Shown here piece by piece: positions 12,438-40,504 of a stretch of DNA of 64,000 bases; position 1 is the first letter of the stretch, and each line of letters starts with the position of its first letter. The notes beneath the pieces are model-generated. The model was not told the origin of the DNA. It worked only from the letters and a program-made list of their open reading frames with translations, and made no database searches. Made by a program: the position numbers and the translations under genes. The stretch covers positions 8,064 to 72,063 of the forward strand of contig JAXHVT010000066.1 in the NCBI GenBank assembly GCA_034188985.1, in the 5' to 3' direction. This DNA is from Actinomycetota bacterium. GTDB lineage: Bacteria > Actinomycetota > Geothermincolia > Geothermincolales > RBG-13-55-18.

Positions 12438-13765
12438 GCGCGAAAAGGAAACTCGTCGCGGCAGGCCTTGCGGCGGGCGCCGCCGCCGGAGCCTGCGCCT
12501 TGAGCCCGCCCTACATGAGGAGCAGCGCCCGCGGTTTTCTGTACGCGGCCGGGTTGAAGCAGGTGCCGCTGCCGGGACTGGGTAGGGTGGTGGCCACCAT
12601 ACTGGGGAAGCCGGACTACCCCCCCTGCTTCGCCCAGATGCACGAGCACGTTCAATATATCTCCGGGGTCGCGCCCCGGGAGTTCTACCTCACCGACGGC
12701 TACAAGATGGCCGTGACCACCAAGCTGGTCAACGACTACTACGGCATGGACGTGCCCCTGCCGTTCACCGACACCTACAACATCGAGGCGGAGGCCATGG
12801 GCGCGACCATGATAGCAGGGGACATAGACATGCCCACCATCGATTACAGGAAGCCGCTTGTAGAGAATATCTCGGATATAGACAGGATCGACATAGACTT
12901 CCAGCCGGACTGGGGGAGGATCGGGTACGTAATCGACACTATCAGGGCCATGAGGGAGGTGTGCGGGCTGCCCGAGCTGATCATCTTCTGCGCGCCCTTC
13001 AGCCTGGCGGTGGGCCTGCGCTCCTACCCCAAGCTCATCCGGGACATGCGCAAGGATCCCCCGGCCGCCCACGCCCTGATGACCTGGATAACCGAGGAGG
13101 TGCACCCCCGCTACCTGGGCCTGCTCAAGAGGGAGACGGGGGCCAGGATAGGCATCGGCGCCGACGCTTGGGCCGCCTTCCCCAACCTCACCGTGGACAT
13201 GGTCGAGGAATGGGTCGTCCCCTACAATTCCAGGCTCAGGCGGCGTATGAAGAAGGAGGGCATGGCCCTCATCCTCATAGGCGCCGCCGACTACTGCGAG
13301 GAACAGGCCGCCAGGTTCGACCGGGAGACCATGGAGGCCTGCTGGCTGACGCATTCCAGGAGCATAGTGGGCGATTGGGCCGTGAACGGCATGCCCTTCA
13401 TGGGCATGGGACGCACCCAGGAATGGCCCCTGGAGTGGATGCAGGAGTTCGCCGTGCGCGGCACCTCGAAGCGCTACGGCAAGAAGGCCATACTGGCCAG
13501 CGTCAACGCCAGGTTCATCAGGGAGGGCCCGGCGGAGGCCATAGTGGATTTCGTCAAGAGGACGGTGGATGTCCTGGCCAGGGAGGGCAAGTTTTTCATA
13601 TTCCTGGCCCAGGTTCCCGCGGCCACTCCCCCCGAGCACGTCCACGCCGCGGTGGCGGCGCTCAAGACCTACGGAAGGTACCCCATAGCCGAGGACCTGG
13701 ACGGGGTGGAATTCCGCGTACCGGAGTTCGAGCCCTTCGACGTGTGGCTGCGCAAGCAGGGATAA
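12434..13765 (+). CDS. uroporphyrinogen-decarboxylase (URO-D) family methyltransferase (MtaA/CmuA/O-demethylase MT-I-like)
   Basis: URO-D-fold conservation through 443 aa; ATGA overlap with corrinoid-protein stop suggests translational coupling. Confidence 0.75.
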   Translation: MSAKRKLVAAGLAAGAAAGACALSPPYMRSSARGFLYAAGLKQVPLPGLGRVVATILGKPDYPPCFAQMHEHVQYISGVAPREFYLTDGYKMAVTTKLVNDYYGMDVPLPFTDTYNIEAEAMGATMIAGDIDMPTIDYRKPLVENISDIDRIDIDFQPDWGRIGYVIDTIRAMREVCGLPELIIFCAPFSLAVGLRSYPKLIRDMRKDPPAAHALMTWITEEVHPRYLGLLKRETGARIGIGADAWAAFPNLTVDMVEEWVVPYNSRLRRRMKKEGMALILIGAADYCEEQAARFDRETMEACWLTHSRSIVGDWAVNGMPFMGMGRTQEWPLEWMQEFAVRGTSKRYGKKAILASVNARFIREGPAEAIVDFVKRTVDVLAREGKFFIFLAQVPAATPPEHVHAAVAALKTYGRYPIAEDLDGVEFRVPEFEPFDVWLRKQG

Positions 13766-14824: not shown

Positions 14825-15322
14825 TTAAGTCTTTCTCCATCCGGCGATAAGCCTGCCGCATTCCTTTGCGGGAAGCCTCCTGCCCCTGGCGACCATTTTC
14901 TCCAGCGCATCGCTGGCATCCCTGGCATCGAAAACGCCGGATTCGACAAGTCGATCCAACAACCAGAGCGTACCATGTACCACGACACCTTCCCCCTCGG
15001 CGGCTTTCCTTAAAGCCTTGTCTCCGGTTAGAAGAGGCATTTTTCTCGATACGGCGATCCCCAGGAGAATAGCGTCGTTTCTCTTGATGGCTGGGTACCT
15101 CACGATGTAGGTTATCAGGCTTTGGAGTGTGGGGCCATCGAGCCCTATCGCTCTTAATCCCATGTCGGCGAGGTCTGAGACGCTGGGAGTTTCCAGTTCA
15201 TCATGCATTATCAGGTCGGTCGTTAAGAACTCGAAGTAAGACTCGAACAAGTAGTTGAGTGATTCCCCCGCCACGAAGTCGAATATAATGCAGGCGTCGA
15301 TCAGGAAAGACGTTCTCTTCAC
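14825..15322 (-). CDS. PIN-domain protein (COG2405-like putative nuclease)
   Basis: Conserved acidic residues (LIDACIIFD, HDELE, LTGDKALRKAA) and C-terminal GTLWLL motif typical of PIN; lies 6 nt downstream of the HTH-ImmA gene in a lower-GC island. Confidence 0.6.
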   Translation of the reverse strand: MKRTSFLIDACIIFDFVAGESLNYLFESYFEFLTTDLIMHDELETPSVSDLADMGLRAIGLDGPTLQSLITYIVRYPAIKRNDAILLGIAVSRKMPLLTGDKALRKAAEGEGVVVHGTLWLLDRLVESGVFDARDASDALEKMVARGRRLPAKECGRLIAGWRKT

Positions 15323-15328
15323 TGATGG

Positions 15329-16453
15329 TCACTTTACAGTTTCTTCGTCCGTCAAGGGCCAGAACAAACCGGCGTATTGTGAGGGAGAGAAAATATCCTT
15401 CGCGCTTTTCAGTGAAGAAGGCGCGATCTCCCGAATACCGGTCGCCACATCCACATACGATGAGCCCAGGAGTTCGACCGCCTTTGACTCGGAGATTACC
15501 TCCTCGGCCAGAAGATGCAGGATGATCTTCTCCATCCTTTTGGGTTTATCGGGTTCTATTTGATCGAAGGGCTCCCGTTTATCGAAATCATTGCTCCTGA
15601 AATACTTAAAAAAAGCCATGTAGAAGCCGCTTCCTATAATCCCGAGATCCTTGGCCCTGTAAACCCACGCCTGCATGCTCAGCTTGTACTTCCGTTTCAA
15701 TAGATACAACTCGTTCAGGTTTAGGGCGTGCCTTTTATGTCCCAACTCCTCGTATACGAGTTCCCTGGGTACCAGGAAAGCACCCGCGAACCGGTGGGCC
15801 GCTTTCTCCTCGTCGATCCCATCTCCCAACAGCATTAGCAGATGACCGAGTTCGTGGGCGAGATTGAAGAACTGCCGGTCACCGGGCAGTTTGTCCTTGA
15901 GGGCGATGACGGGGTCCTCATCGGCGTAGAAGGTGCATGCGTCGAATTCCCGGCATGCTTCGAAGAGGCCTATCTTCACGCCCCTGTCCTCGAGGATATC
16001 GATCATGCTCTCTACGGGATCGAGTCCCAGGCCCCAGTGGTTACGCAGATTGACGGCTATTCCCTCGATATCTTCAAGTTTCTCTGCAAACCTGTTCATA
16101 TCAACCGGTAGGCGTTTCCTGAACTCGATCCTTGAGGGAAGCAGGCTTTCGGCCTCCATGTATCTTTCCACCCACTCCCTTACCTGCCCGGTCAGCTTCT
16201 GCTCCTGTTTCCTGGGCATGGACAGGCGGCAGCGAAAAGCCATCGCCTTTAACTCGGGGCCCACCGGCCGCAGAAAGAACTCGGTCTTGATACCCAGGGC
16301 TTTCGCCAGCCTTACAAGCACTCCCGAGCTGGGCATGTCATGCCCGTTCTCGTATTTCGATATGGCCATGGCGCTGACGCCCGAAGCCTCTCCCAGCGCC
16401 CTCTGGCTCAAGCCCTTCATGTGGCGTGCCATCTTGATCCTCTCGCCGATCAT
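15329..16453 (-). CDS. XRE-family HTH fused to ImmA/IrrE (M78, COG2856) zinc metallopeptidase
   Basis: N-terminal Cro/C1 HTH (LSQRALGEASGVSAMAISKYENG); HEXXH (HELGHLL) peptidase motif; RBS GGAGG before ATG 16453. Confidence 0.8.
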   Translation of the reverse strand: MIGERIKMARHMKGLSQRALGEASGVSAMAISKYENGHDMPSSGVLVRLAKALGIKTEFFLRPVGPELKAMAFRCRLSMPRKQEQKLTGQVREWVERYMEAESLLPSRIEFRKRLPVDMNRFAEKLEDIEGIAVNLRNHWGLGLDPVESMIDILEDRGVKIGLFEACREFDACTFYADEDPVIALKDKLPGDRQFFNLAHELGHLLMLLGDGIDEEKAAHRFAGAFLVPRELVYEELGHKRHALNLNELYLLKRKYKLSMQAWVYRAKDLGIIGSGFYMAFFKYFRSNDFDKREPFDQIEPDKPKRMEKIILHLLAEEVISESKAVELLGSSYVDVATGIREIAPSSLKSAKDIFSPSQYAGLFWPLTDEETVK

Positions 16454-16571
16454 GCCAGCCACCTCCTTTCACCGGTTTACACAATAGCAAATATATTTCT
16501 ATATGTAAACTGCTAAGCCTGGAAGTTGATTTCCTGAAATGTCACCATGTACTGGTAAAATATAGTGTCGA

Positions 16572-18419
16572 ATGAAGGCTATTGCAGGGCGATTTAACGG
16601 TATGCCCGTTTGCTATGTTTTTCTGTCAAAGCTCCTTAGCGGGAATCTGTTATTAACAGACGGGAAAGCATTCCCCTATAGCAACTACAACAAGCGAAAT
16701 TATGAGCATACTGCAGAGGAATTACGGGCTAATGAAGATTGGCATAGGGGAATATTACCTGACGAGGAGGAACAAAGACTGAGGCGATTAACCGTTTCTC
16801 CTTCAAGGGAGAAGCTCGCACCAATAAGAGACTGCAATTTGGAGGCTCAACGGTTAATCTCACAAGCCAAAGATTTATGTGGCAGGTCCGTCACGACCCG
16901 TGTTATTGAAGATTTGAAGAACAGGCCCAGTGTTAATAGATGGGTCGAACAAGGCCTTCAACTCCATGCCGAACAACAATCTCCAAAGTGCCTCTTCTGT
17001 AATCAATCTCTACCACCGGGTCATCTTGCCAGGCTGGAAGCTCATTTCAGTGAAGAATACAAGCAGCTCATCGGTGAAGTAGGGAAACTGGAGCATGATA
17101 TTGAAGAAGAACGCAAGCGATTGGAATCAGGCCGCTTACCCGAGAAGGCATTATTGTATGAAGAATTCCAAGATGATTATGGGAATGCTATTGAAAGATA
17201 CGAAAGCGAGAAAGAGGGGTACCTGGACCTCCTTGATTATCTGCAGAACCGGCTGGAATCCAAAAAAGAAGATCCCTTCATGGATATTCAATGTGATTAT
17301 GAATCTTGGCGGATAGATATGGAAACCATGTCAAGCGTGAACGGATTGATAAGAAGACACAATGAAATGAGCGATAATTTTCAGAGAAAAGTTGAAGAGG
17401 CAAGGAGGGAACTCGAGGAGTCATATGTGGCGAAGGAGCTTGTACGGTTCACCGAATTGAGTGATCAGAAAAAATCCCAAGAGGAAATGATCAATAAGCT
17501 TGATAGAGAATTGTCCGGTATAAAGGAAAAGATCGAGCAACTGGAGCTGGGTATCAAGGATCATCTGCGGCCAGCGGAAGAATTGAACGAAGAGATCGGG
17601 CAATACCTAGGGCATGACGAGCTTCGCTTTGAGGCCAGCGAGGCCGAGGCAGGCTATAGCATTGTCCGTGAAGGGGAGCCCGCACGCTCATTATCCGAAG
17701 GGGAAAAGACGGCTCTGGCTTTTCTATATTTTCTGAGAACACTTACGGACAAGGATCTCGAGATAGAAGAAGGAATCGTTGTGATTGACGACCCTGTTTC
17801 CAGCTTGGATTCAACCTCACTGTACAATGCTTTTGGCTTTATGAAGGATCGTGTACAAGAGGCAGGTCAACTATTTGTTCTTACCCATAATTTCCTGTTC
17901 TTCCGGCAGGTTAAGAACTGGATGTCATATCTTAAGCAAAGAAAGAAGAAAGATATCGGATTTTATATGCTTCTTACCGAAAATGTGATAGATGGAAGAT
18001 GTTCTAGCATCGTGATATTAGATGAATTATTGAGAGACCATGAGACTGAATATCACTATCTTTTCAAACTTGTTTATGAAGCCGCAAATAGCGAACCTGG
18101 CAAAGGGAAGTTGCGAGACTACTATCATCTGCCAAACGTGGCACGCAGGCTTATGGAGGCTTTCCTTGAATTTACATTTCCAAATGAGAAGAATCTATAT
18201 TCAAAGATAGATCAAACAAATATCCTTGCAGCAAAGAAGGCGCGAATTAAGAGATTCTGTGATACTCATTCGCATAACGCTAGAATAAGCCAGCCTGAGC
18301 ATGATGCTTCAATCCTCGGTGAAACGCCGGCGATTATGAAAGATATCATGGTAATGATAGCCGAAACAAATCATGATCATTATGATCGCATGAAGGAGCT
18401 GGTGACCCCATCATCATGA
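16572..18419 (+). CDS. AAA_13-family (PrrC/RloC-like) ABC-type ATPase with C-terminal Rx4H (HEPN-like) nuclease motif; appears 5'-truncated and is probably non-functional
   Basis: ABC signature LSEGEK, Walker B/D-loop VVIDDPVSSLD, zinc-hook-like CLFC, H-loop THNF, C-terminal KRFCDTHSH (Rx4H). No Walker A (GxxGxGKT) anywhere; only about 140 aa precede the CxxC where full-length relatives have about 260. Lower GC than surroundings. Confidence 0.6.
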   Translation: MKAIAGRFNGMPVCYVFLSKLLSGNLLLTDGKAFPYSNYNKRNYEHTAEELRANEDWHRGILPDEEEQRLRRLTVSPSREKLAPIRDCNLEAQRLISQAKDLCGRSVTTRVIEDLKNRPSVNRWVEQGLQLHAEQQSPKCLFCNQSLPPGHLARLEAHFSEEYKQLIGEVGKLEHDIEEERKRLESGRLPEKALLYEEFQDDYGNAIERYESEKEGYLDLLDYLQNRLESKKEDPFMDIQCDYESWRIDMETMSSVNGLIRRHNEMSDNFQRKVEEARRELEESYVAKELVRFTELSDQKKSQEEMINKLDRELSGIKEKIEQLELGIKDHLRPAEELNEEIGQYLGHDELRFEASEAEAGYSIVREGEPARSLSEGEKTALAFLYFLRTLTDKDLEIEEGIVVIDDPVSSLDSTSLYNAFGFMKDRVQEAGQLFVLTHNFLFFRQVKNWMSYLKQRKKKDIGFYMLLTENVIDGRCSSIVILDELLRDHETEYHYLFKLVYEAANSEPGKGKLRDYYHLPNVARRLMEAFLEFTFPNEKNLYSKIDQTNILAAKKARIKRFCDTHSHNARISQPEHDASILGETPAIMKDIMVMIAETNHDHYDRMKELVTPSS

Positions 18420-20409: not shown

Positions 20410-21511
20410 TCAGGTGATGTTTCTGGGAGTGACCTGGACCTCGAGGTCCCCTTGCTCGGAGAGATTCCACTCCACGCCGGATTCCGTGTCGAAGGCCATC
20501 TCGAAATTCCCCTGAACCAGGCCGATGACGATGAAGTGGAGGCAGGCGTTGCGCAGGTGCAGGTACGCCCCCCTCCCGTCTATCTCGAAGTCGACCAGGT
20601 TGCCCAATCCCCTCAGGGCAAGCTGGGTTCGCAGATCCTCGTCGGCCTCCATGATATCAAGGGTGTAAAAGCCCGTCCTCACGAACCTGCGCTGCGCCTC
20701 CACCACCGCCCGGGGAATGGCATCGCCCAGCTCCCATTCCAGCGCCGTAAAGATGGGATCCGGCAATTCAGGCCCCAGAATGGTCATGCGCCTGCCTGTA
20801 TAAACCTGCTTTATGATCCCCTTTTCCAGGTCCCAATCATAGCTGGACAAAGCCTTGGGGCAGCCACAGGTAGGGCAGACCTCCAGCTCGATGTCCCCGT
20901 CTTCGTGGGCGTATTCCTGGAGCCGCAGGCGCTCCTTCAGCACCTCGGGGTACTCCGCCCAACTGGTGGTGAATTCGTACAGCCCGGGAGATAGCTGCTT
21001 GTAGGATACGTCATGCTCGCCCCCAACCATGGCCGATACGACGCCGGCGATGGCCCCGGCGGCCTCCGGTACGGAGAAGGGGGCCTGGATGCGAAAGGTC
21101 GAGTAATCGCCGGCGTCTCTCTCGTAGCGCAAGCCCACGAACTCGTATCTCCCGTAACCGATTGCATGGCAGTAGGTCAGTATGGTGTCCGCGAAGGCTC
21201 GCGGATCCATGCGCTTGGACCGGATCATGTCCTTGACCTCATCGGGGAATAATCTGTTCATGTAGATCTCGGTCCCCCCTGGCGGCTATGTTCATGACGA
21301 ACGGCTCGATGGGTACGCCAATGATCTCACCGATATTCGCGAATAGCGGGTCAAGGTTCTCGCATTCGATGAAGGCGATACGGGCACCGGGATTCACCCT
21401 CTGGACGATATCCCCGTTGTTCAGCCACATCTGTCCCTGCACGAAAGGCTCGGGGACTTCGTATTCCGGGCAGCGATCGATATCCAGCATCAAGAGTCCT
21501 TTCCAGTACAT
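20410..21511 (-). pseudogene. tandem XylR_N/V4R sensor-module protein (paralog of 37757-38851) split by a frameshift
   Basis: N-terminal part (21239-21511) and C-terminal part (20410-21261) are homologous to consecutive halves of the 364-aa protein but sit in different frames; the shift maps to a G6 run (plus strand cccccc at about 21274-21279). Confidence 0.6.
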
Positions 21512-21745: not shown

Positions 21746-21761
21746 GTTACCGTTGGGTAAC
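21746..21761. promoter_or_regulatory. perfect inverted repeat GTTACCgttgGGTAAC immediately downstream of a TATAAT (21736-21741); candidate operator/promoter of the thiolase gene
   Basis: Read directly. Confidence 0.4.
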
Positions 21762-21827
21762 TACTTTTATCGATGCAGTGAACACCTTAGCCGACAGGCC
21801 GGGACAGAAGAAAGCGAGGTAGAAGAC

Positions 21828-23009
21828 ATGGCAGAACTGAAAGAATGCGTTCTGGTTGACGGGGTAAGGACCCCCAACTGCAGAGCCCACGCCCAGAAGG
21901 GGTGGTTCCGCGCCAAGCGCCCGGACGAGCTCTTGACCTACGTCTACAAGGCCCTCTTCGAGCGCAACCCCCAGGTCAAACCCGAGGAGATCGAGGCGGT
22001 ATTCTGCGGGACCGCCAACCAGACCGGCATGCAGAACGACATCGCCCGGCTGGGGTGGCTGGCCTCGGGATTTCCGGAGAGCGTGGCCACCAACGGCGTG
22101 AACCAGCAGTGCCCGTCGGGCATGTCCTGCGTGGAGCACGCCGCCCGCGCCATCATGTGCGGGGAGGGCGATATCTACATCGCCTCCGGCGTGGAGGACA
22201 TGCAGAACGTGAGCATGGGTATGGGAATGGATTTCCCGCCCCGCATCGCCGAGTATTATAATATGGCGGAGTTTCCCATGGGGCAGACGGCCGAGAAGAT
22301 AGCCGAACAGTACAATGTCAGCCGCGAGGACTCCGAGCTCATGGCCCTCCACAGCCATTTGAAGGCGGCGGCGGCCCGCGACGCGGGAAAGTTCGATGGC
22401 GAGATAGTGCCCGTGCCGGGCCTGGACACCGATGGCAACGAGTTCATGGTGGACAAGGACCAGTGGATAAGGGACAACGCGAGCCTGGAGCAGATGGCCG
22501 GGATGCAGCCCGCCTTCCGGCCCGACGGAAAAGTCACCGCGGCTATCAGCTCGCCGCTGACCACCGGCGCCTGCGCCGCGCTGCTGGTGAGCAGGGACAA
22601 GGCGGACGAGCTGGGCATGTCCTACCACGTACGCTACGGTGGCGGTGCCATGGCCGGATGCGACCCCACCGTGATGGGTATAGGGCCCCTCTTCGCGGCC
22701 CGCAAGCTGCTGGAGAGGGAGGGTCTGACCGTGGACGACATCGACATCTGGGAGCTCAACGAGGCCTTCGGCACCCAGTCCCTGGCCGTCATCCGCGAGC
22801 TGGGCATCGGCGAGAACGCCCCCTTCGACAACATCAACATCTGGGGCGGTGCCCTGGCGCTGGGCCACCCCCTGGGCGAGTCGGGGGCTCGCATAGTCAT
22901 CACCCTCAACAACATCATGAAGAAGGACCTGCCCGACGCCAAGCGCGGCGTGGCCATGCTGTGCGGCGGCTTCGGAAACGCCAACGCCACCTTGTGGGAG
23001 AAGGTATAG
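21828..23009 (+). CDS. acetyl-CoA C-acyltransferase (thiolase II, FadA-like)
   Basis: Thiolase motifs (NQQCPSGM active-site Cys region, C-terminal GHPLGESGARIV...CGGFGNANA); ends TAG. Confidence 0.85.
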   Translation: MAELKECVLVDGVRTPNCRAHAQKGWFRAKRPDELLTYVYKALFERNPQVKPEEIEAVFCGTANQTGMQNDIARLGWLASGFPESVATNGVNQQCPSGMSCVEHAARAIMCGEGDIYIASGVEDMQNVSMGMGMDFPPRIAEYYNMAEFPMGQTAEKIAEQYNVSREDSELMALHSHLKAAAARDAGKFDGEIVPVPGLDTDGNEFMVDKDQWIRDNASLEQMAGMQPAFRPDGKVTAAISSPLTTGACAALLVSRDKADELGMSYHVRYGGGAMAGCDPTVMGIGPLFAARKLLEREGLTVDDIDIWELNEAFGTQSLAVIRELGIGENAPFDNINIWGGALALGHPLGESGARIVITLNNIMKKDLPDAKRGVAMLCGGFGNANATLWEKV

Positions 23010-23345: not shown

Positions 23346-23837
23346 TTGAGCACGGGCTTGATTATCTTCCTCGCCGTGGTGCTTGGCGCGGCGGTTCTGG
23401 TGTTGAACGCCACCCTCATCCTGCGCTGGCTGAGGCGGTTGAGGAGGGAGGCCATAGCCGGCCTGCGCGAGGACGTGGGATCGCAGAGAGTCTACCAGGT
23501 GGACGACTGTAATTTCTTCGGCGTGGAATCGGCGGGTTACGGCCAGGCGAGGGGAAACGGCGTCATGGCCCTGGCGCAAAGAGGCATATACTTCCGCATG
23601 CTCATACCCCGTAAACATCTCTTTATCCCCCTGGCATCGGTACGGGAGATCTCCCATCCCCGCTGGTTCAAGGGAAGATCCAAGGCCAGGGAGCTGCTGC
23701 GCGTAGATTTCACCGGTCAGGCGGGCGAGAGGGACGCCGCGGCCTGGCTGGTCCCCCACCGTGAATGGTGGAAGGAGGCCATCCTGTCCCTGCGAGAAGG
23801 GCGGGAGCCCTCACCCAGCCCCCCAAGACGCCGCTAG
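23346..23837 (+). CDS. hypothetical membrane-anchored protein (N-terminal TM helix, PH-like C-terminal region)
   Basis: Hydrophobic N-terminus LIIFLAVVLGAAVLVL; no recognisable catalytic motifs; TTG start. Confidence 0.4.
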   Translation: MSTGLIIFLAVVLGAAVLVLNATLILRWLRRLRREAIAGLREDVGSQRVYQVDDCNFFGVESAGYGQARGNGVMALAQRGIYFRMLIPRKHLFIPLASVREISHPRWFKGRSKARELLRVDFTGQAGERDAAAWLVPHREWWKEAILSLREGREPSPSPPRRR

Positions 23838-26778: not shown

Positions 26779-27255
26779 ATGAAAGTAGAGGCCATACCGG
26801 TTAGAGAGCTGGTGGAGGAGTGTCTCCGCGTCAAGGGTTCCCTGGCGGAGAGGAGCGGGATAAGTCTCGAGGCAAGTATCGAGGACCCGCGGGCCTTTCT
26901 GCACGGCGACCGCCGCCTGCTGATGACCGCCGTCAACAACCTCATCGATAACGCCATGAGGAACAACCGTTCGGGCGGAAAGATCAGCATAGCCTACCGT
27001 CACGACGGCACCAGGGAGTCCATCATGGTATCCGATACCGGCAAGGGTATACCTTACGACGAGCTGCGCTCCATAAAGGATATGTTCTGCTGGTCCGGAA
27101 AGCGTTCAATCGATGAGCTCGAGTCCGTTGAAGACGAGCTGATCGGGCTCTCAATCGTGAGGGATGTAGCCGACCTGCACGGCGGACGGGTTGGTGTACG
27201 CAGCCTGGAGGGAGAGGGCTCCACCTTCAGCTTCCATCTGCCGCGCCGCGGATAA
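26779..27255 (+). CDS. stand-alone HATPase_c domain protein; partial paralog of the C-terminus of the adjacent PhoR-like kinase, lacking the His-phosphotransfer domain
   Basis: Aligns to the last ~150 aa of 24860-26623 (N-box LIDNAMRN, G-boxes, ...GEGSTFSFHLPRRG vs ...GEGSTFTLRIPRR); no H-box. Confidence 0.6.
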   Translation: MKVEAIPVRELVEECLRVKGSLAERSGISLEASIEDPRAFLHGDRRLLMTAVNNLIDNAMRNNRSGGKISIAYRHDGTRESIMVSDTGKGIPYDELRSIKDMFCWSGKRSIDELESVEDELIGLSIVRDVADLHGGRVGVRSLEGEGSTFSFHLPRRG

Positions 27256-32259: not shown

Positions 32260-32456
32260 TTTCCTGTATTATCGGTCATATTCTATTAGACGAGGGCTAA
32301 AAAGGCTGGAGGCTGAGGCATCAACACGTGGAGTAAGAGCGTGCGGCGCTCTATATAAATCTTCAGGCTCGATTGCTACTCGTATGGGGGGTGAGATATG
32401 CGGCAAGTGGTACGGAGGACACCCGTTTTTCACCGTTTGAAAATGGAGGTGAATTT

Positions 32457-33593
32457 ATGGCTGAAAGAGTGGCTATAGTAGGTGTCAAGGAGCACAAGCC
32501 CGCCGAGGCGTACCGGAACCTGCACTTTACCAGCCTCATAGTGGATACGGTGATGCCCTTCCTGGAGGAGATAAACATGCCCTGGGAGGAGATGGAGAGC
32601 CTGGTGGGCGCCGGTTGCGACATGCTGGACGGTCGTTCCATCTCCAGCGTGTTCACCGTGGACCCCATGGGCGGGTTCATGAAAGAGGAATCGAAGGTCG
32701 AGGAAGATATCGCGTTGGCGGTCATGTACGCTTTCATGCGTGTGGCCTCGGGCAGTTTTAAAAACGCCCTGGTCTGCGGATACGGCAAGGGCTCGGAGCT
32801 TCACCCCCACTTCTTCACCGGGCTTCAGTCGGAGCCCGTCTTCATGAAGCCCTTGGGCCTGGACGGATTGACCACCAGCGCTATTCAGGCCACCGCTTAT
32901 ATGAGTAAATACGGAGTCAGCAGGGAGGCGGGGGCGGCCATGGCGGCGCACGATCTGCACAACGCGTTGAAGAATCCCAACGCGCAGAGGGCCATGGACG
33001 TCACCGTGGATGAGGTTCTCAAATCGAAGGAGCTGGCCTACCCCATCACCGAGTTGGAGTACGTGCCGGTTTCGGACGGCTGCGTGGCCGTTATGCTCGC
33101 CAGCGAGGAGGTGGCCGGGAAATACACCGATAAACCGGTGTGGATAGAGGGCATCGGAAACTGCAACGATCTCTTCTACCCCGGTCACCGCGACCTGGCT
33201 GATTCCCGTGGCGTCAAGGCAGCGGCCGAGCGGGCCTACAAGATGGCGGACATTGGCGCATCGGATATCGATCTGGCCGAGGTATACGGCTACAGCTCCT
33301 GGCAGGAGCTCATGGTTCTGGAGGGAATGGGCTTCGCCGAGGATGGAGCCGCCCCTAAGGCTCTCGAGGCCGGTAAGTTTGGTATGGAGGGAGAGCTTCC
33401 GGTCAACATGTCGGGGGGCGCGCTGTCCGCCAACGTCTGGATGGCATGCGGGGGTTCGAGGATAGCCGAATGCTTCCTACAGCTTCGCGGTGAGGCCGGA
33501 GACCGCCAGGTTGACGGCGCTAAGAAGGCGGCGGCCCACGCCACCACCGGGTTGGCCCTGCAGTCCAACACGGTTATGGTACTGGGGAGGTAG
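32457..33593 (+). CDS. thiolase-like protein (SCP-x type), first of a tandem pair
   Basis: SCP-x thiolase conservation; C-terminal LRGEAGDRQVDGAKKAAAHATTGLA; RBS GGAGG before ATG 32457. Confidence 0.8.
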   Translation: MAERVAIVGVKEHKPAEAYRNLHFTSLIVDTVMPFLEEINMPWEEMESLVGAGCDMLDGRSISSVFTVDPMGGFMKEESKVEEDIALAVMYAFMRVASGSFKNALVCGYGKGSELHPHFFTGLQSEPVFMKPLGLDGLTTSAIQATAYMSKYGVSREAGAAMAAHDLHNALKNPNAQRAMDVTVDEVLKSKELAYPITELEYVPVSDGCVAVMLASEEVAGKYTDKPVWIEGIGNCNDLFYPGHRDLADSRGVKAAAERAYKMADIGASDIDLAEVYGYSSWQELMVLEGMGFAEDGAAPKALEAGKFGMEGELPVNMSGGALSANVWMACGGSRIAECFLQLRGEAGDRQVDGAKKAAAHATTGLALQSNTVMVLGR

Positions 33594-33598
33594 ATGAT

Positions 33599-34759
33599 AT
33601 GCCAAGGAAAGTAGCGGTTATCGGAACGGGTCAGACCAAGACCAAGATGCGGCGCACCGACGTCGACTTCCCCGGACTGGTACACGAGGCCGTATCGCGG
33701 GCCCTAGAGGACGCGGGGATCACCATCAAGGATATCGACGCTGTGGTGTTCGGGAGCTCTCCCGAATACTTCGAGGGCGTCAACAATCCCGAGAAATGGT
33801 GCCTGGACGCTTCCGGCGGCTTTATGAAGCCTCAGTTCCGCATCCATACCGGGGGTACGGTGGGGGCCTCCACCGGTATCGGGGGGTTTTATCACGTGGC
33901 CTCGGGAATGTACGACATCGTCCTGGCTGTCACCGGCGACAAGCTATCGGAGGGCGAGGTCCAATACAATCTCTCCACGGTGTACGATCCCATATTCGGC
34001 AGGGATATGGCCTGTGGGGCGCCCAGCGCCGTGGCCCATCAGGCCTCCCGTTACATGCATAAGTACGGGGTTACGGAGGAACAGACGGCCGTAGCGGCCG
34101 TACAGGACCGCAAGCATGCTCAGAACAACCCCTACGCCCAACTGCAGCTGGATATAACGGTCGAAGACGTTATGAAGTCACCTCCCATCTCCTCCCCTAT
34201 TAAATTGCTGGACGCCTGCCCCGCCTCGGATGGAGCAGCGGCCATGGTGTTCGCGGTCGAGGAAAAGGCGGAGAAGATGTGCCGGAGGCCGGCATGGGTA
34301 CGGGCGGTTTCCGCCATAGCCGAGACGGCGAACTACGCTTATCGCGATTGGTCGGAGCCAATAGCGTTGATCAAGGCGGCCAAGAAATGTTACGCGGCCT
34401 GTGGTATCGACAATCCACGCAAGCAGCTGGATGTGATCGAGATGTACGATGCATTCAGCCCCCAGATGCTCATATGGGCCGAGTCCCTGGGCCTCTGCGA
34501 ACGCGGCGATGGCGGTAAGTTCATCGAGTCCGGGGCCGCATCCATGGAGGGCGACATCCCCATCAATCCCTCTGGAGGAGTGCTGTCCGCCAATACCATC
34601 GGCGCCACGGCCATGGTGCGCCAGGTCGAGGTCTGCCTGCAGGTTATGAGTAAGGCTGACAAGCGGCAGGTTGACGAGGCCAGTTGGGGACTGGCCCATG
34701 GCTGGGGCGGAGGCATCCAGTTCCATACCGTGATGGTCGTCAGCAGCGAGAAGCCCTGA
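33599..34759 (+). CDS. thiolase-like protein (SCP-x type), second of the pair
   Basis: VAVIGTGQTK N-terminus; C-terminal GWGGGIQFHTVMVV. Confidence 0.8.
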   Translation: MPRKVAVIGTGQTKTKMRRTDVDFPGLVHEAVSRALEDAGITIKDIDAVVFGSSPEYFEGVNNPEKWCLDASGGFMKPQFRIHTGGTVGASTGIGGFYHVASGMYDIVLAVTGDKLSEGEVQYNLSTVYDPIFGRDMACGAPSAVAHQASRYMHKYGVTEEQTAVAAVQDRKHAQNNPYAQLQLDITVEDVMKSPPISSPIKLLDACPASDGAAAMVFAVEEKAEKMCRRPAWVRAVSAIAETANYAYRDWSEPIALIKAAKKCYAACGIDNPRKQLDVIEMYDAFSPQMLIWAESLGLCERGDGGKFIESGAASMEGDIPINPSGGVLSANTIGATAMVRQVEVCLQVMSKADKRQVDEASWGLAHGWGGGIQFHTVMVVSSEKP

Positions 34760-34776
34760 GTCGCAAGGTGGTGAGA

Positions 34777-35229
34777 ATGATGGCTGAGGAAAAATACGGA
34801 GTCATGAAGGGTCATATAGGAGACGCTCCCTACAACTGGACCACCGGAAAGACGGCGGGCCGGCTGCTTCAGGAATTCCGCGACAACCGCAAGTTCGTGG
34901 GATTCAAATGTCCCGGCTGCGGCAAGGTTTACTTTCCAGCCAAGGACATCTGCGGCGAGTGCTACGTACCGCTCGAGGAGGAGCCGGTCGAGGTAGGCCC
35001 GGAGGGCGAGGTAATATCCTACACTATCGTGCGCGAGGCCAACCCCGAGTCGCCAGCCGAAGCCCCTTACGTCCTGGGTATGGTCAAGCTGGACGGCGCG
35101 GATACGGCGGTAATCGGACTGCTCCTGGCCGGGGACAAGGACGTCCAGGTAGGCATGCGAGTGAAGCCGGAGTGGAAGGAAGAGCGCATGGGCCATTTCA
35201 GCGATCTCGAGGGCTTCGTCTCGGCATGA
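34777..35229 (+). CDS. DUF35 OB-fold/Zn-ribbon protein (thiolase partner)
   Basis: CPGCGKVYFPAKDICGECY rubredoxin-like ribbon followed by OB-fold region. Confidence 0.8.
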   Translation: MMAEEKYGVMKGHIGDAPYNWTTGKTAGRLLQEFRDNRKFVGFKCPGCGKVYFPAKDICGECYVPLEEEPVEVGPEGEVISYTIVREANPESPAEAPYVLGMVKLDGADTAVIGLLLAGDKDVQVGMRVKPEWKEERMGHFSDLEGFVSA

Positions 35230-35257
35230 GCACCCCGTGGAGGAAAGGAGTGATGAA

Positions 35258-35713
35258 ATGTCCGAGGAGGTAGTGGAGTTCCAGGGACGTATTAACGTTC
35301 CCTATGAATGGGCCTATGGAGAGAATCTGACCAGGTTCTTCGAGGGCACCAGGAATAAAAAGATATACGGTGCTCGCTGTCCTTCCTGCAAGGGCGTGAT
35401 AACGCCGCCTTACCCTTATTGCCAGAGGTGTTTCGTTCCCACCGAGGAAGAGTGGATAGAACTTCCCCATACCGCCAGGGTGGACGCCTTTACCGTGGTC
35501 TACCTGCCCTTTCCGGGCCAGCCCATGGATCCCCCCTATGCTTATGCCACGCTGGTCGTGGACGGTAGCGACGGATATTATCTTCACATGCTGGGCGAGT
35601 GCGAGTTCGAGGATATACACTGCGACATGAAGGTGGAGGCGGTCTGGAATCCCGAGCCCAAGGGGGACCTCTACGATATACTCTACTGGAGGCCGATAAA
35701 GGAAGCTAAGTAA
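35258..35713 (+). CDS. DUF35 OB-fold/Zn-ribbon protein (second copy)
   Basis: CPSCKGVITPPYPYCQRC ribbon plus OB-fold; RBS GGAGGAAAGGAG upstream. Confidence 0.8.
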   Translation: MSEEVVEFQGRINVPYEWAYGENLTRFFEGTRNKKIYGARCPSCKGVITPPYPYCQRCFVPTEEEWIELPHTARVDAFTVVYLPFPGQPMDPPYAYATLVVDGSDGYYLHMLGECEFEDIHCDMKVEAVWNPEPKGDLYDILYWRPIKEAK

Positions 35714-35723
35714 GGATAAATCC

Positions 35724-35760
35724 GGGGGGTGGGGCCTCGCTCCCACCCCCTATATTATTC
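35724..35760 (+). terminator. Rho-independent terminator (GGGGGTGGG-gcctcgct-CCCACCCCC followed by TATATTATTC)
   Basis: 9-bp GC stem read directly, 11 nt after the stop. Confidence 0.6.
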
Positions 35761-35780
35761 GGGAGAGACGGGAGGAAGGT

Positions 35781-36518
35781 TTGGTCTTGAAAAGGGAACC
35801 CGGCCGGCGGGGCGATCGAGGGGAGCAACTGCTGAGAGCGGCGAGGGAGGTCTTCTCCCGCAAGGGATATAACGAGGTCACCGTGGCGGATATCACAGCA
35901 GAGGCCGGCTTGGCCAAGGGTACCCTGTACCTCTACTTCCAGAGCAAGGAGGAGCTCTTCCTGGAGGTGATAAGGGACGCCATTCAGAGGTTGCGTCACG
36001 CCCTGGGAGAGGCGGTGGGAGACGTGGACGACCCACTGGAGAGGGTGAAGGTATCGGTGCCCTTCATCTTCAAGTTCTGCCACCAGGAGGCCGGGCTCTA
36101 CCTGGCCATATTCCAGCAGTCTTCCTTCCTCCAGAGCGAGCGCCACGAAGAGTACAAGGCCCTCTACGAGCCCCTGGCCAGGGATTTCCAGATGACCATC
36201 GAGGAGGGGGTGAGGCGCGGCGTCTTCAGGGCCGGCAACCCCTACCTTCTATCCCACGGGGTTCACGGTTTCCTGGCCAGCCTTATTTACCAGTGGCTAC
36301 TGCTGGAGAAGGAGGGAGGGGCACCGCCCGGTTACCTGGAGGAGATGTCCGAGACCGTGAGCCGTTTCTTCTACTACGGCCTGGTTGGCGAGTCCTTTCC
36401 GGAGCTTGGGGAGCTGAGCGAGGGATTGAGGGCCCAGTACCGCCACCAGCTCGAGGAGATACACGAGTGGCAGCGTGAGTTGGTCAGGCTGGAGAAAATC
36501 CTCCGCTCCTACATCTAG
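35781..36518 (+). CDS. TetR/AcrR family transcriptional regulator
   Basis: TetR HTH (YNEVTVADITAEAGLAKGTLYLYFQSKEELF). Confidence 0.8.
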   Translation: MVLKREPGRRGDRGEQLLRAAREVFSRKGYNEVTVADITAEAGLAKGTLYLYFQSKEELFLEVIRDAIQRLRHALGEAVGDVDDPLERVKVSVPFIFKFCHQEAGLYLAIFQQSSFLQSERHEEYKALYEPLARDFQMTIEEGVRRGVFRAGNPYLLSHGVHGFLASLIYQWLLLEKEGGAPPGYLEEMSETVSRFFYYGLVGESFPELGELSEGLRAQYRHQLEEIHEWQRELVRLEKILRSYI

Positions 36519-36742
36519 GGGTCGGGTTCCGAGTTATAAAAAATATTCTTACTATTGATCGATCGTCGAAGACGGAGATACGAAACTCGATTAATAGGTA
36601 ACATATGGGGTAAAAACCGGTTTTCGAGGCCTGACACCAGGCCCGTCAAGATGTTACCCCCGAGTTTAAATTTTGATATGATAGTCCATATCGTTTGTCG
36701 GGAAAAGGCTGTAAAGATCTCTGGCCAGCCACTGATTTAAGC

Positions 36743-36757
36743 AACGGTTCAACCGTT
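36743..36757. promoter_or_regulatory. perfect palindrome AACGGTTcAACCGTT about 40 nt upstream of the SDR gene, within a palindrome-rich intergenic region; candidate operator
   Basis: Read directly; the region also carries AAAACCGGTTTT (36616-36627) and distant GGTAAC/GTTACC half-sites. Confidence 0.4.
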
Positions 36758-36795
36758 ATCAAAACGGGTTGTTAGAACGGTTAAGGAGGGTAACC

Positions 36796-37617
36796 ATGAA
36801 GGAAGAGAAGAAAAAAGACGTTCGCGGCAAGGTATTTCTAGTCACCGGGGGCGCCATGGGTATGGGGCGCGGAATGGCCGAGCGCTTCGCCAGGGATGGG
36901 GCAAAGGTGGTGCTGTGGGATATCAATCCCGTTGAGTTGGATAAAACGGAGCGCCAGATGAAAGAAAGGGACATGGACGTCTACTCTTACGTGGTGGACG
37001 TAACCGACCGTGAACAGGTCTACGACACGGCGGAGAAGGTGAAGAGGGAAGTGGGCGCGGTCGACGTAATCATGAACAACGCCGGCATCGTCAGGGGCGG
37101 TCCCTTTATGGAGGTGAGCGACGACGATCACTATGCCACCATGGACATCAACTTCAACGCATACATGTGGATGATCAAGGCTTTCATGGGGGATATGATG
37201 GCCCGCAACGACGGCCATATCATAAACATAGCCTCGGCGGCGGGGTTGACCTGCGTGCCGTTGCTGGCCAATTATTGTGCCAGCAAGGCCGCCGTGGTCA
37301 ATTTCACCGATTCCATGAGAATGGAAATGAAGCGCCTGGGTTACAAAGGTGTCAAGTTCACCATAATCTGCCCCAGCTACGTCCAGACGGGAATGTTCGA
37401 GGGTGTCAAGGCCCCCTTCGTGACCCCCTGGATGACCACAGAGGAGATGTGCGACAAGATATACAAGGGGTATCACAAGGACAAGAAGATGGTGGCGGAG
37501 CCATTTATGGTCAAGTTGGTTCCAGCCTTGAGGGGTATATCGCCGCGATTTGTCTACGACGTGTTCTCCGTTTTCCTGGGCGTGTCACGTTCCATGGAGG
37601 AATGGCGAGGGCACTGA
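36796..37617 (+). CDS. SDR family oxidoreductase
   Basis: TGGAMGMG Rossmann motif, NNAG, catalytic YCASK; RBS AAGGAGGG before ATG. Confidence 0.8.
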   Translation: MKEEKKKDVRGKVFLVTGGAMGMGRGMAERFARDGAKVVLWDINPVELDKTERQMKERDMDVYSYVVDVTDREQVYDTAEKVKREVGAVDVIMNNAGIVRGGPFMEVSDDDHYATMDINFNAYMWMIKAFMGDMMARNDGHIINIASAAGLTCVPLLANYCASKAAVVNFTDSMRMEMKRLGYKGVKFTIICPSYVQTGMFEGVKAPFVTPWMTTEEMCDKIYKGYHKDKKMVAEPFMVKLVPALRGISPRFVYDVFSVFLGVSRSMEEWRGH

Positions 37618-37756: not shown

Positions 37757-38851
37757 GTGCCCGATATTGACAAGTGCCCGGAGTGCAGGGTCCCGAGGCA
37801 GATAACGTCCGAGCACATATGGCGGAACAACGGGGTGATAATCTCCAAGCGAGATTCTACCCACCGCATGGTATTCTTCGAGAGCGACAACCTGGATCAC
37901 CTGTACCACGGGATCGCGGAGCTGATCGGCATGCCGATCGAGCACCTGGTGATCGATGCCTCGCGCAGGTCCACCCAGGCCTATATAGACCGCCTGGTTC
38001 CCGATGACATCAAGGAGCTGATGAGGCAGCGGGACATGGAGATAAGTCTGGTCATCGAGGCCATGTTCACCACCTCCAGGTTGATGGGATACGGTCGGCT
38101 CTCCCTGGTTGACGTACGCTACGAGGGCGATAAGAAGGATTTCGTTACCGTTCGCCTGGAAAAGCCCTACTCTCTTCCCCTCTGCTACGGTAACTTTTCG
38201 GGGACGGTCGAGGCCCTGATTGGTGGGGAGCCGGGTATCGAATACGGAGAGGTGTCCCCCGGGGTATACGAAGCCATGGTGTTCTCCTCCGAGATCCCTT
38301 CCGAGCTGAAGAAGAGACTGCATTGGAGAGGATATCTTCAGAAGTACAAAGAGGGCCATATTGAGCTGGAACGTTGCGGCACCTGCGGGGGGCCGAGGGC
38401 ACTCTCCAGCTTTCATTGGGACCTGGACATGGGAGTGATCAGGAGCACCACCACGGGCAAAAGGATGGTTATAACCGGCCCATCGATGATAGACCCCGTC
38501 TTCGAGGACCTCGAGCAGGAGCTTGGCGATTCCATCCCCCGCGTGGTCGTGGAGGCCCAGAAGAGATTCGTGAAGACAGGCTTTTTCTCCGTCGGTGAGG
38601 TCGACGACGAGGCCTCTCTACGTAGCCGGCTGGCCTTGAGGGGCCTGGGCAATATGGTCGAGGTAAGGATGGGCAGAAAGGGTGTCCGCCTGGTGCTGGA
38701 GAACGCCGCCCTGCATCTTCTGGGCGTGGGTATGGCTCAGGGCCTGTACGAGCTGGCTTTCAACGTGGAGTCGGAGGTGGATTGGGAGCTTTCCGAGGAT
38801 GGCGTACTGCATATTGAGGTCAACCCTAAAGGCCATTCGCTTAACCTCTGA
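37757..38851 (+). CDS. tandem-duplicated sensor-module protein: two repeats of [CxxC knuckle + XylR_N-like + V4R (4-vinyl-reductase-like)]; no DNA-binding or AAA+ output domain
   Basis: Repeats CPECRV...HIWRNNGVI...RMVF...AELIGMP and CGTCGG...HWDLDMGVI...RMVI...EQELGDS resemble the XylR/DmpR A-domain N-terminus. GxG...N(S/A)(A/C)LH..G.G.AQG stretches resemble V4R. GTG start; family name assigned by motif recall only. Confidence 0.5.
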   Translation: MPDIDKCPECRVPRQITSEHIWRNNGVIISKRDSTHRMVFFESDNLDHLYHGIAELIGMPIEHLVIDASRRSTQAYIDRLVPDDIKELMRQRDMEISLVIEAMFTTSRLMGYGRLSLVDVRYEGDKKDFVTVRLEKPYSLPLCYGNFSGTVEALIGGEPGIEYGEVSPGVYEAMVFSSEIPSELKKRLHWRGYLQKYKEGHIELERCGTCGGPRALSSFHWDLDMGVIRSTTTGKRMVITGPSMIDPVFEDLEQELGDSIPRVVVEAQKRFVKTGFFSVGEVDDEASLRSRLALRGLGNMVEVRMGRKGVRLVLENAALHLLGVGMAQGLYELAFNVESEVDWELSEDGVLHIEVNPKGHSLNL

Positions 38852-38954
38852 GCGGCAACCCCGCCCGTTCGAGCGCTCAATACCCGCATGATGGAGACCG
38901 TACATTGATGTATGCCACGTTCAAACCATGGGTGGCTGAGCGGCGATAGATTAG

Positions 38955-40112
38955 ATGGATTATAAAGTCCAAAATATAATGATGGAAGCTCGCAAGGAAC
39001 CTGGAGGTGTAGCTGCGATGGCTGGAGAGGGTGTATGTCCGGAGTGCGGAGTTCCCAGGCATATTACCTCCGAACACATGTGGCTGAACAGCGGCGCCAT
39101 AGTGCAAAGCCGCGAGAGTAAGACCCGCATGGTCTTCATCGAGTGCGAAAACCTAGACCCGCTCTTCCGGGGCATAGAGGGCGTTATCGGCATGCCCATC
39201 GAACGCGCCGTGAACGCGACCAAGTGCAAGGCGGTCCGTTCATATCTGGGCAACCTGCTGCCGGAGGTTACCAGGTAGCTGTTGCGGAAGCGGGAGATAG
39301 ACCGGAGGCCGGTGAATGACGGATTCAGGTCCATGGCGGGCATGTCCGGCTATGGCAGGTACGAGGTTGTGGGCTACCGCCACGAGCAGGACGTGGACGG
39401 CTATATCATCGAAACAATATCCAAACCCTATTCCGTGCCCCTGGCCTGCGGGGATATTGCCGATGCCTTCGAGGTAATCTACGGCTGCGAGCTGGGGGTA
39501 AGATACGAGATAAAATCCCCCGACCTGTACGAGGTGACCTGCTACGTGTCCAACCACCCACGGGAGTTCAAGGGAAGGCTGCGCTTCGAGTAGCGGCAAC
39601 TCAAGGGCGGGGACATCGAGCTGGAGAGATGCGCGAGCTGCGAGGGCCCCGCGGCTCTTTCCAATTTCAGGTGTATTCCGGAACGGGGCGTCATCAAGGG
39701 GGTCATCACGGACAGATGCATGGTCCTGACCGGTATGGAGCTCGAAGCCATCTTTGGCGAGCTCGAGAGGGAGCTGGGCGATACCATCACCAAGGTGGTA
39801 ACAGAGACGCAGCGCCGTTTCGTGAGAACCTGCTTCTACGACGTCGAGGGCATGGGCAAGCTGGACATGCGGGACCAACTGGCCCTGCGGGGGCTGGGAA
39901 ACCTACGGGAGCTGTCCTCGGATGAAAGGGTACTGCACGTGAAGGTCGAAAACATCTTCCTGCACCTGATGGTGGTGGGCCTGGTCCAGGGTCTCTACGA
40001 GCAAGCCAGGGTTACCGACAGCCGGGTGGAATGGGAGCTCTCGGACGAGGGTACCCTGGATATTGAGGTATACCCTCGAGTGCGGGCAGCGGCAGGGAGA
40101 AAGAGGTCTTAG
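38955..40112 (+). pseudogene. paralog of the 37757-38851 XylR_N/V4R module protein, interrupted by two in-frame TAG codons (39276-39278, 39594-39596)
   Basis: ORFs 38955-39278, 39282-39593 and 39720-40112 are all frame 0 and collinear with the intact paralog over its full length. TAG is used as a genuine stop by at least six other genes here. Confidence 0.6.
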
Positions 40113-40504
40113 CGTAGGTCTTCCCCCCGTGTATAGCCGCGATTATTCCAACCGTGCCCTCTGAGGGGTGGAATTCGGGCCTCAGGTCATACGGCTTATT
40201 CTATCCACCCTCTCCCGCGACTCGGGATGGACGTCGATGCATCTCTCGAGATACTTGTCCAGAAGGTAGTTCGATTCCTGCGGGTGATTGATAAGCATGT
40301 GGTTGATCAAGGGCGCGTACCAGCCCGTTGTCTTTATCCGTATAAACTCCGTTTTCTTGATGTCGTTCTGAATCGATAAGGGGGATCGAGCTTGCTCGCG
40401 CGATACCCTGGATCACGGGACTCGATTCATGCGGTGTTTGGTGCCGACGTTGTGGTAGAATCGCTGCATAACCGGAAAACATCGGATTAAGTCAGGCATG
40501 TGAC

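Follow-up and report, generated by a model that had tools for sequence, protein, structure and literature searches.

In the regulator DmpR, the sensory A domains dimerize by intertwining residues 18-45, and each holds a zinc site (C151/E172/C177/C185) that lies inside its V4R part (PMC7264223). Packing helices alpha2 and alpha5 of the V4R/Bet3 superfamily contain two glycine doublets of the form Gx3G, and the Bet3-family subunits of TRAPP function as homo- or heterodimers of paralogs (PMC2253512). Here we describe a protein family from Geothermincolia, a class of Actinomycetota, represented by one intact gene and two damaged copies in a window of 64,000 nucleotides (the whole stretch of DNA analyzed, positions 8,064 to 72,063 of contig JAXHVT010000066.1, assembly GCA_034188985.1; features in Table 1). 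Structure prediction makes it highly probable that the intact protein consists of two fused XylR-A-like pocket modules with no output domain.

The protein encoded by the intact gene is 100% identical to SWK76_14885 at NCBI, which is labelled a hypothetical protein of an Actinomycetota metagenome-assembled genome (MAG); Logan assigns another contig of this MAG to run SRR24907504. Its start codon follows the Shine-Dalgarno-like stretch GGAAGGGA by a few bases and agrees with the N-termini of homologues ('MP.I..CPECGVP'); a scan for consensus promoters and terminators around the family genes found such sites no more often than in shuffled controls. The two halves of the protein are recognizably related, with BLASTP aligning them over the first 69 residues (E 4e-7). 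With 68 homologues included, hhalign matches module 1 to module 2 across 157 columns, which is the whole module, at a probability of 98.7% and an E-value of 1.4e-16. An original prediction, made from the letters of this DNA alone, had named an intact gene with two damaged paralogs, an internal duplication giving a tandem-module architecture, and a CxxC pair in each half; all three genes lie where it had put them, and both the duplication and the cysteine pairs proved real.

The cysteines are the most constant feature of the family. Across 279 full-length members, C7, C10, C207 and C210 each have a conservation of 1.00, and the four-cysteine pattern is kept in about 300 sequences that cover both sites, the lone exception being P0189, with R at position 10. 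No further cysteine is conserved among the full-length members, nor is any histidine at a threshold of 85%; H20, for instance, varies among H, L, Q, Y, N and other residues. Each module contains one C-x2-C-(G)-x-P knuckle and none beyond it; C-terminal to the knuckle, a W, a G and an R are invariant (W22/G26/R37 in module 1 and W221/G226/R236 in module 2). The knuckles resemble the CxxCG of rubredoxin and rubrerythrin. A rubredoxin or zinc ribbon has its four ligands within about 20-40 residues, and here the two pairs are 200 residues apart. Because there is a single CxxC per module, neither module alone can form a four-ligand metal site.

AlphaFold2 predicts the full-length protein with confidence (pLDDT 91.6, pTM 0.89), and one succession of elements occurs twice in the model: a knuckle, a short helix, three strands, four helices and a beta-beta-alpha-beta-beta unit. 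Module 1 is predicted to begin with a Cys2 knuckle and beta mini-domain (residues 1-45) and to continue as a V4R/Bet3-like alpha-alpha-beta-beta-alpha-beta-beta part. Searched against the PDB with Foldseek, the full-length model returned only members of the H-NOX/XylR-A/TRAPP-Bet3/YslB/V4R superfold, including the V4R protein MJ1460 (PDB 2oso) at E 1e-2. When module 1 was modelled alone (pLDDT 81.5), its top 12 PDB matches were all A domains of PoxR, MopR or DmpR, at E 1.2e-6 to 3.5e-5, with a TMq of 0.55-0.63 and, against isolated PoxR/MopR sensor domains, a TMt of 0.56-0.61. These alignments span 187-203 columns, the full length of both partners with the N-terminal segment included. The next tier (H-NOX, BcsD and TRAPP) starts at E 2e-3, with TRAPP at about 7e-3, so that the A-domain E-values are roughly 70- to 2000-fold better; YslB and MJ1460 are likewise weaker matches than the A domains. 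In the module-1 model the pLDDT of the N-terminal 30-50 region falls from above 90 in the full-length model to about 65, and the strand at 37-42 is gone. This loss is consistent with an N-terminal segment that packs on module 2, much as in the DmpR dimer.

The two modules have diverged to different degrees. On average, pairs of members share 32.7% identity in module 1 (residues 5-178) and 42.5% in module 2 (residues 205-357); the most variable stretch is 71-110 and the most conserved are 251-270 and 291-300. Module 2 contains the conserved motifs VVEAQRRF and ALRGLGN. One conserved Gx3G doublet is present per module (G145/G149 and G325/G329), on the helix that separates beta2 from beta3. A second doublet is not evident in either module, and the small residue conserved on the other helix in module 2 is A267.

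At the level of sequence, the searches returned no such kinship. Pfam gave no V4R or XylR_N match for the three window copies at E<=1, and among 68 members both PF02830 and PF06505 fell outside the 25 most-hit Pfam families at E<=10. Scans of the three copies, the 68 members and a distant subfamily against Pfam and NCBIfam found no domain of any kind above threshold. Among those most-hit families the matches were of the single-knuckle zinc-ribbon kind only, seen in up to 42 of the 68 (best zf-Mss51, E 7e-7) and below the Pfam threshold, each spanning just 15-20 residues or so and one knuckle. Comparison of a family profile with all PDB sequences picked out neither an XylR-family nor a V4R chain; what matched, below threshold, was the CxxCG knuckle of rubrerythrin and of L37e. 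Against an A-domain profile of 46 sequences, built from pWW0 XylR and its homologues, the two modules gave hhalign E-values of 0.18 and 0.12 at a probability below 1%; their short local matches, which are not significant, both fall on one XylR segment, 33-72. Using the alignment of the most distant subfamily as a bridge to V4R, a database search led only to more Actinomycetota hypothetical proteins without Pfam domains, and a literature search found nothing on this family.

The idea of an XylR A-domain-like N-terminus joined to a V4R-like part, which the original prediction had put forward together with ways of checking it, is thus upheld at the level of predicted fold and not at that of sequence. 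The confident AlphaFold model supports both parts, twice over, and the Foldseek ranking agrees; statistically supported similarity to PF02830 or PF06505 did not materialize in any of the 68 members, nor in the comparison with the XylR profile. Two further remarks, that the family could not be placed among characterized ones and that it carries no AAA+ or HTH output, are borne out by the lack of any Pfam or NCBIfam match and by some 530 cluster representatives without an output domain or a real fusion.

The gene structures, the internal duplication, the predicted fold, the constancy of the cysteines, the distribution and the lack of a conserved neighbourhood are results of the analysis; what we infer from them goes further, to a metal site, to the binding of a ligand, to a role played in trans and to separate tasks for the modules. 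The protein is probably soluble, stands alone and is made of two fused homologous modules, each predicted to have the fold of an XylR-type A domain, with an N-terminal intertwining segment and a V4R/Bet3/H-NOX-like alpha/beta pocket. Gene duplication would have made the interlocked A-domain homodimer of the regulators covalent, producing a pseudo-dimer. All four invariant cysteines may be ligands of a single metal centre (Zn, Fe or an Fe-S cluster), which would clamp the N-terminal segments to each other, and this shared Cys4 centre would replace the internal Cys-Glu-Cys-Cys zinc site of XylR-type domains. A small hydrophobic or aromatic ligand would be bound. Having no output domain, the protein would work in trans, either sensing this ligand or carrying it. 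Ligand specificity might be set by module 1, which evolves faster, and the conserved module 2 might contact a common partner.

Taken as a whole, the explanation that best fits the observations, and towards which we lean slightly, is a covalent pseudo-dimeric XylR-A-like receptor or carrier with a Cys4 clamp, belonging to an expanded family in which some copies have become pseudogenes. For the function taken by itself, a stand-alone receptor or carrier of a small hydrophobic or aromatic ligand that works in trans with a Cys4 metal clamp, we regard the chances as evenly balanced. A more ambitious version, which we think unlikely, would make the family a Geothermincolia-specific and hitherto unrecognized class of trans-acting small-molecule or redox receptors. 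Here ligand or redox state would alter the clamp of the pseudo-dimer (Fe, Fe-S or Zn) and the change would be passed to partners, with the dozen paralogs per genome forming a sensory repertoire in a phylum without sigma54 enhancer-binding proteins.

The two damaged copies bear on how the family evolves. The three window copies are 42-45% identical to one another, which makes them old paralogs and not recent duplicates. Copy 2 has its family-type start probably at the ATG at 39018, and in the two intact relatives closest to it (L018:5803-7047 and L067:6989-8095, 61-62% identity) an amino acid is encoded at each position where it has an in-frame TAG. It has lost four of 40 conserved positions (G149D, W221C, R236C and A267T), where those relatives miss 0-2, and by eye it also carries G211E, P261T and G275C. 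All three of its TAG codons (39276-39279, 39591-39594 and 40110-40113, each with the following base) have C next, and several of the changes specific to this copy create Cys codons (R to C, W to C and G to C). Could copy 2 still be functional, its two stops read as pyrrolysine or passed by programmed read-through? In favour of this, TAG is the codon at both internal stops, nothing else interrupts the reading frame along its 386 codons, and the identity to the nearest intact relatives is as high as that of copy 1. Yet TAG ends 11 of the 56 long open reading frames (ORFs) in the window, among them at least seven clear genes such as the adjacent TetR, one of the thiolase-like genes and, at its own end, copy 2. 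The relatives have Glu and Tyr or Val in the TAG columns, the lost residues are near-invariant and their loss is unique to copy 2, and neither a tRNA-Pyl nor a pyl gene was found within the 64-kb window. We rejected recoding on these grounds, and consider a functional copy 2 extremely improbable. By its sequence, copy 2 is a young pseudogene and not a recoded gene. Copy 3 appears to be a young pseudogene as well: removing one G from its frameshifted run restores a 366-residue ORF, and the change of the invariant Cys10 to Tyr (CPEYEVPEP, against CPECKVPEP in orthologues) argues for real inactivation.

Other functions can be imagined for the intact protein. It could be an enzyme comparable to D27, which has a [4Fe-4S] cluster and the same superfold; in this case the four cysteines of the family would ligate a redox-active centre (Fe or Fe-S), and the substrate would be a hydrophobic molecule lodged in the V4R-like pocket. 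The invariance of the cysteines would suit this, Geothermincolia-type organisms are anaerobes rich in Fe-S proteins, and some paralogs adjoin lipid/acyl-CoA enzymes and a pair of B12-radical-SAM and geranylgeranyl-reductase (GGR) genes. In D27, however, the cysteines sit inside the pocket, on the beta-sheet and a helix, whereas the family has them outside the V4R part, in its N-terminal knuckles. Structurally, sensor domains and not enzymes match best, and 8 to 12 or more paralogs per genome, a fast-evolving module 1 and frequent pseudogenes are more typical of binding or sensing families than of one enzyme activity. An enzyme is accordingly a doubtful candidate. We find still less to recommend a Bet3-like scaffold, in which paralogs would combine into hetero-oligomers whose partner subunits come from tandem genes, and would provide a platform for assembly instead of sensing a ligand. 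The structural matches include subunits of TRAPP/Bet3, which pair with themselves or with paralogs (PMC2253512), and family genes often stand in tandem pairs, triplets or quadruplets, but the TRAPP match is far behind the XylR-type one (E about 7e-3 against 1e-6) and the tandem genes show no fixed subunit pairing. At the PhoU-GltX loci described below, the second family gene is absent from several genomes (L009, L011-L013), and where it is intact it is only 46% identical to copy 2 and not its ortholog. Last, the knuckles could be zinc-ribbon-like contacts to DNA or RNA, giving a nucleic-acid-binding regulator with its output built in. The weak zinc-ribbon matches in up to 42 of 68 members speak for it; each knuckle, however, has one CxxC with no second nearby, those matches are about 15-20 residues long, Pfam and NCBIfam report no HTH or other DNA-binding domain, and the rest of the module is a ligand-pocket fold. 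We judge such a regulator very unlikely.

Several observations also weigh against the pseudo-dimeric receptor or carrier that we prefer. As there is no sequence-level link to XylR_N or V4R, the case for homology, rather than for convergence of fold, depends on the predicted structure. The module-1 model was built from a shallower alignment (24 sequences, against 68), and this difference may be enough to account for the drop in confidence at its N-terminus. When all ORFs of 85 related loci were clustered for a shared partner gene, no kinase, cyclase or transcription factor was common to paralogous loci, leaving trans-signalling without genomic support. As for the damaged copies, the G-run frameshift of copy 3 could, taken alone, be an assembly error, and the damage is light: four of 40 conserved positions are lost in copy 2 and one of 40 in copy 3, where the family median is 1 and the maximum 14.

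The family is large and narrowly distributed. An exhaustive profile search gave at least 531 cluster representatives (at 50% identity) with E<=1e-3; full-length members have about 345-385 residues, and many of the shorter matches listed are fragments. Two over-long members were considered as fusions and rejected, P0010 being a start miscall and P0152 having a low-complexity read-through tail. Among the named sources and the 80 loci listed, every taxon-labelled source is an Actinomycetota MAG, L080 being labelled only 'uncultured bacterium'. Finer placements are Ca. Solincola, Ca. Geothermincola, Geothermincolia/Geothermincolales and Anoxymicrobiaceae, with one record labelled Acidimicrobium ferrooxidans. 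A scan of species-representative genomes with a single peptide pattern found at least 80 loci, its locus and paralog counts being lower bounds; separate loci reach at least nine in one MAG, tandems of two to four genes are common, and a genome holds 8 to 12 or more paralogs. For scale, the published genome size of a related Ca. Solincola MAG is about 2.8 Mb.

A distant subfamily of 374-391 residues, about 20% identical to the window protein, keeps all four cysteines and occurs only in the same MAGs. Its genes lie on the opposite strand, about 5 kb downstream of a P0120-type paralog, and the genome of the window has a member of its own (SWK76_06130, near the paralog SWK76_06100). In other genomes, family genes are split into two ORFs (L031:5754-6850, L070:713-1770, L073:7001-8117, L080:6941-8082 and L082:7022-8035), which reflects either recurrent pseudogenization or indel errors in MAGs. 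Overall, the family evolves by birth and death, through duplication into dispersed and tandem paralogs and through pseudogenization.

The surroundings of the intact gene had suggested a role in binding or channelling substrates of a catabolic locus. The thiolase/DUF35, SDR and TetR neighbours on which that suggestion was based are confirmed by Pfam. In related genomes, 12 syntenic loci have the order PhoU, family gene, in some cases a second family gene, GltX, CysE and CysS. None of the 85 related loci has a counterpart of the window's TetR, DUF35 or SCP-x thiolase genes, and for the SDR the matches there reach 34% identity at most. From this comparison, the block at 32373-37617 looks like a window-specific insertion of about 5.9 kb, a lineage-specific cassette of acyl-CoA/steroid-side-chain type. 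Since these neighbours are not conserved, and are missing from all 12 syntenic loci, the catabolic role is unsupported. Two further positions are conserved. At one, seen in 8-9 loci and occupied in the window by copy 3, a thiolase stands beside one or more family genes followed by a Polysacc_synt flippase; at the other, a GGR-like FAD enzyme and a B12-radical-SAM gene precede a family gene, which is followed by MazG / CARDB / a kinase-regulator pair. The recurrent neighbours only mark these three orthologous positions, and none is common across paralogous positions.

Some other parts of the window deserve mention. A probable mobile or defence insertion is the low-GC island at 14825-18419, just upstream of the flippase/copy-3 region (GC 0.47 at 16-18 kb, against about 0.60 elsewhere), which encodes a DUF3368 protein, a protein with HTH and Peptidase_M78 (ImmA/IrrE-type) domains, and a 615-residue AAA_13 ATPase. 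Downstream of the canonical thiolase, a 163-residue ORF at 23346-23837 with no Pfam or NCBIfam match is found at the same position in seven related loci (40-57% identity). A PAS/HAMP histidine kinase is followed by a 158-residue ORF (26779-27255) consisting of HATPase_c only, an arrangement kept at L001 (165 residues) and L003 (162 residues). At 12434-13765, a 443-residue protein of the URO-D family, which includes MtaA/CmuA-like methyltransferases, adjoins an SDR gene.

Table 1. Coordinates of the family genes, their parts and their neighbours in the window; the last row lists genes at related loci.
Feature	Coordinates	Strand	Remarks
Intact family gene (copy 1)	37757..38851	+	GTG start, 364 residues, ORF unbroken
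Module 1 (residues 1-178)	37757..38290	+	Delimited by secondary structure and Foldseek; more variable module
CxxC no. 1 (C7-P-E-C10)	37775..37786	+	Invariant in family
Module 2 (residues 205-357)	38369..38827	+	Delimited by hhalign against module 1 and conservation; more conserved module
CxxC no. 2 (C207-G-T-C210)	38375..38386	+	Invariant in family; codons read directly
Paralog copy 2	38955..40112	+	One frame, full length, two in-frame stops; 104 bp downstream of intact gene
In-frame TAG no. 1 of copy 2	39276..39278	+	Aligns with Glu of nearest relatives
In-frame TAG no. 2 of copy 2	39591..39593	+	Aligns with mostly conserved Tyr (Y193 of copy 1); nearest relatives Y or V
Paralog copy 3	20410..21511	-	Frameshifted; pieces 21511..21239 (90 residues) and 21261..20410 (283 residues)
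G6 run with +1 frameshift of copy 3	21274..21279	-	C-run on + strand; one G removed gives 366-residue ORF
TAC codon of copy 3	21461..21463	-	Invariant Cys10 to Tyr
Two SCP-x-type thiolase-like genes	32373-33593 and 33599-34759		Pfam
Two DUF35/ChsH2 OB-fold genes	34684-35713		Pfam
TetR gene	35781-36518		Pfam
SDR gene	36769-37617		Pfam
Canonical thiolase, beside copy 3	21753-23009		Pfam
Distant-subfamily genes	L048:6549-7673, L052:13074-14249, L060:12364-13503, L062:12611-13750, L064:12257-13396, L065:11990-13126	-	

What is new here is the fused tandem form, a split Cys2+Cys2 site in place of the internal zinc site, a divergence of sequence beyond all current family models, and a strong lineage-specific expansion. 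The superfold itself is already known, as are stand-alone single-module proteins of XylR_N and V4R, which have 210-240 residues (e.g., P0287 and P0310). If our reading is true, a fused pseudo-dimer with a split four-cysteine site would be a new architecture for the V4R/XylR-A/H-NOX/Bet3 pocket-fold superfamily. The predicted structure would also place the fold of the aromatic-sensing A domain, as an expanded and output-less family, in an uncultured, deep-branching class of Actinomycetota, where it is among the larger uncharacterized paralog families in genomes of about 2.8 Mb. The identity of the ligand would inform the physiology of Geothermincolia, and the proteins are possible compact ligand-binding scaffolds for biosensors.

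Compared with described systems, the family shares most with those built on the same pocket. D27 carotenoid isomerase (DUF4033) has a related superfold and four conserved cysteines that bind a metal cluster, but it is a single module with its cysteines in the pocket, differs from the two-module family with its N-terminal knuckles, and shows no detectable sequence similarity to it. H-NOX haem sensors and TRAPP Bet3 subunits have the same pocket fold of alpha-helices and a four-stranded beta-sheet, and they act in trans on partners or as subunits of oligomers. Their structural scores for the family are far weaker than those of XylR-type domains, and, unlike in H-NOX, a haem-ligating His is unlikely, as no His reaches 85% conservation in the full-length members. 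Stand-alone V4R proteins (COG1719, 'predicted hydrocarbon-binding', such as MJ1460 and BchJ) share a pocket domain without output and, by the match to 2oso, the fold; a Gx3G helix motif occurs in the family as well, once per module. Those proteins are single modules recognized by Pfam, whereas the family is a tandem duplication with Cys knuckles that matches no Pfam or NCBIfam model and is confined to one actinomycetotal class.

The closest parallel remains the A domain of XylR, DmpR, MopR and PoxR (PF06505 plus PF02830), onto which one module of the family is predicted to superpose over about 190-200 residues, despite the lack of significant sequence or profile similarity. The regulators carry an AAA+ sigma54-activator domain and a DNA-binding domain, and the family has no output domain at all; the host phylum, Actinomycetota, is generally considered to lack sigma54. 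Conservation does not extend to the Cys-Glu-Cys-Cys zinc site inside the XylR-type domain, and each module instead has one CxxC at its start. Finally, whereas XylR-type regulators bring two separate A domains together through their N-terminal segments, the family holds its two modules in a single chain.

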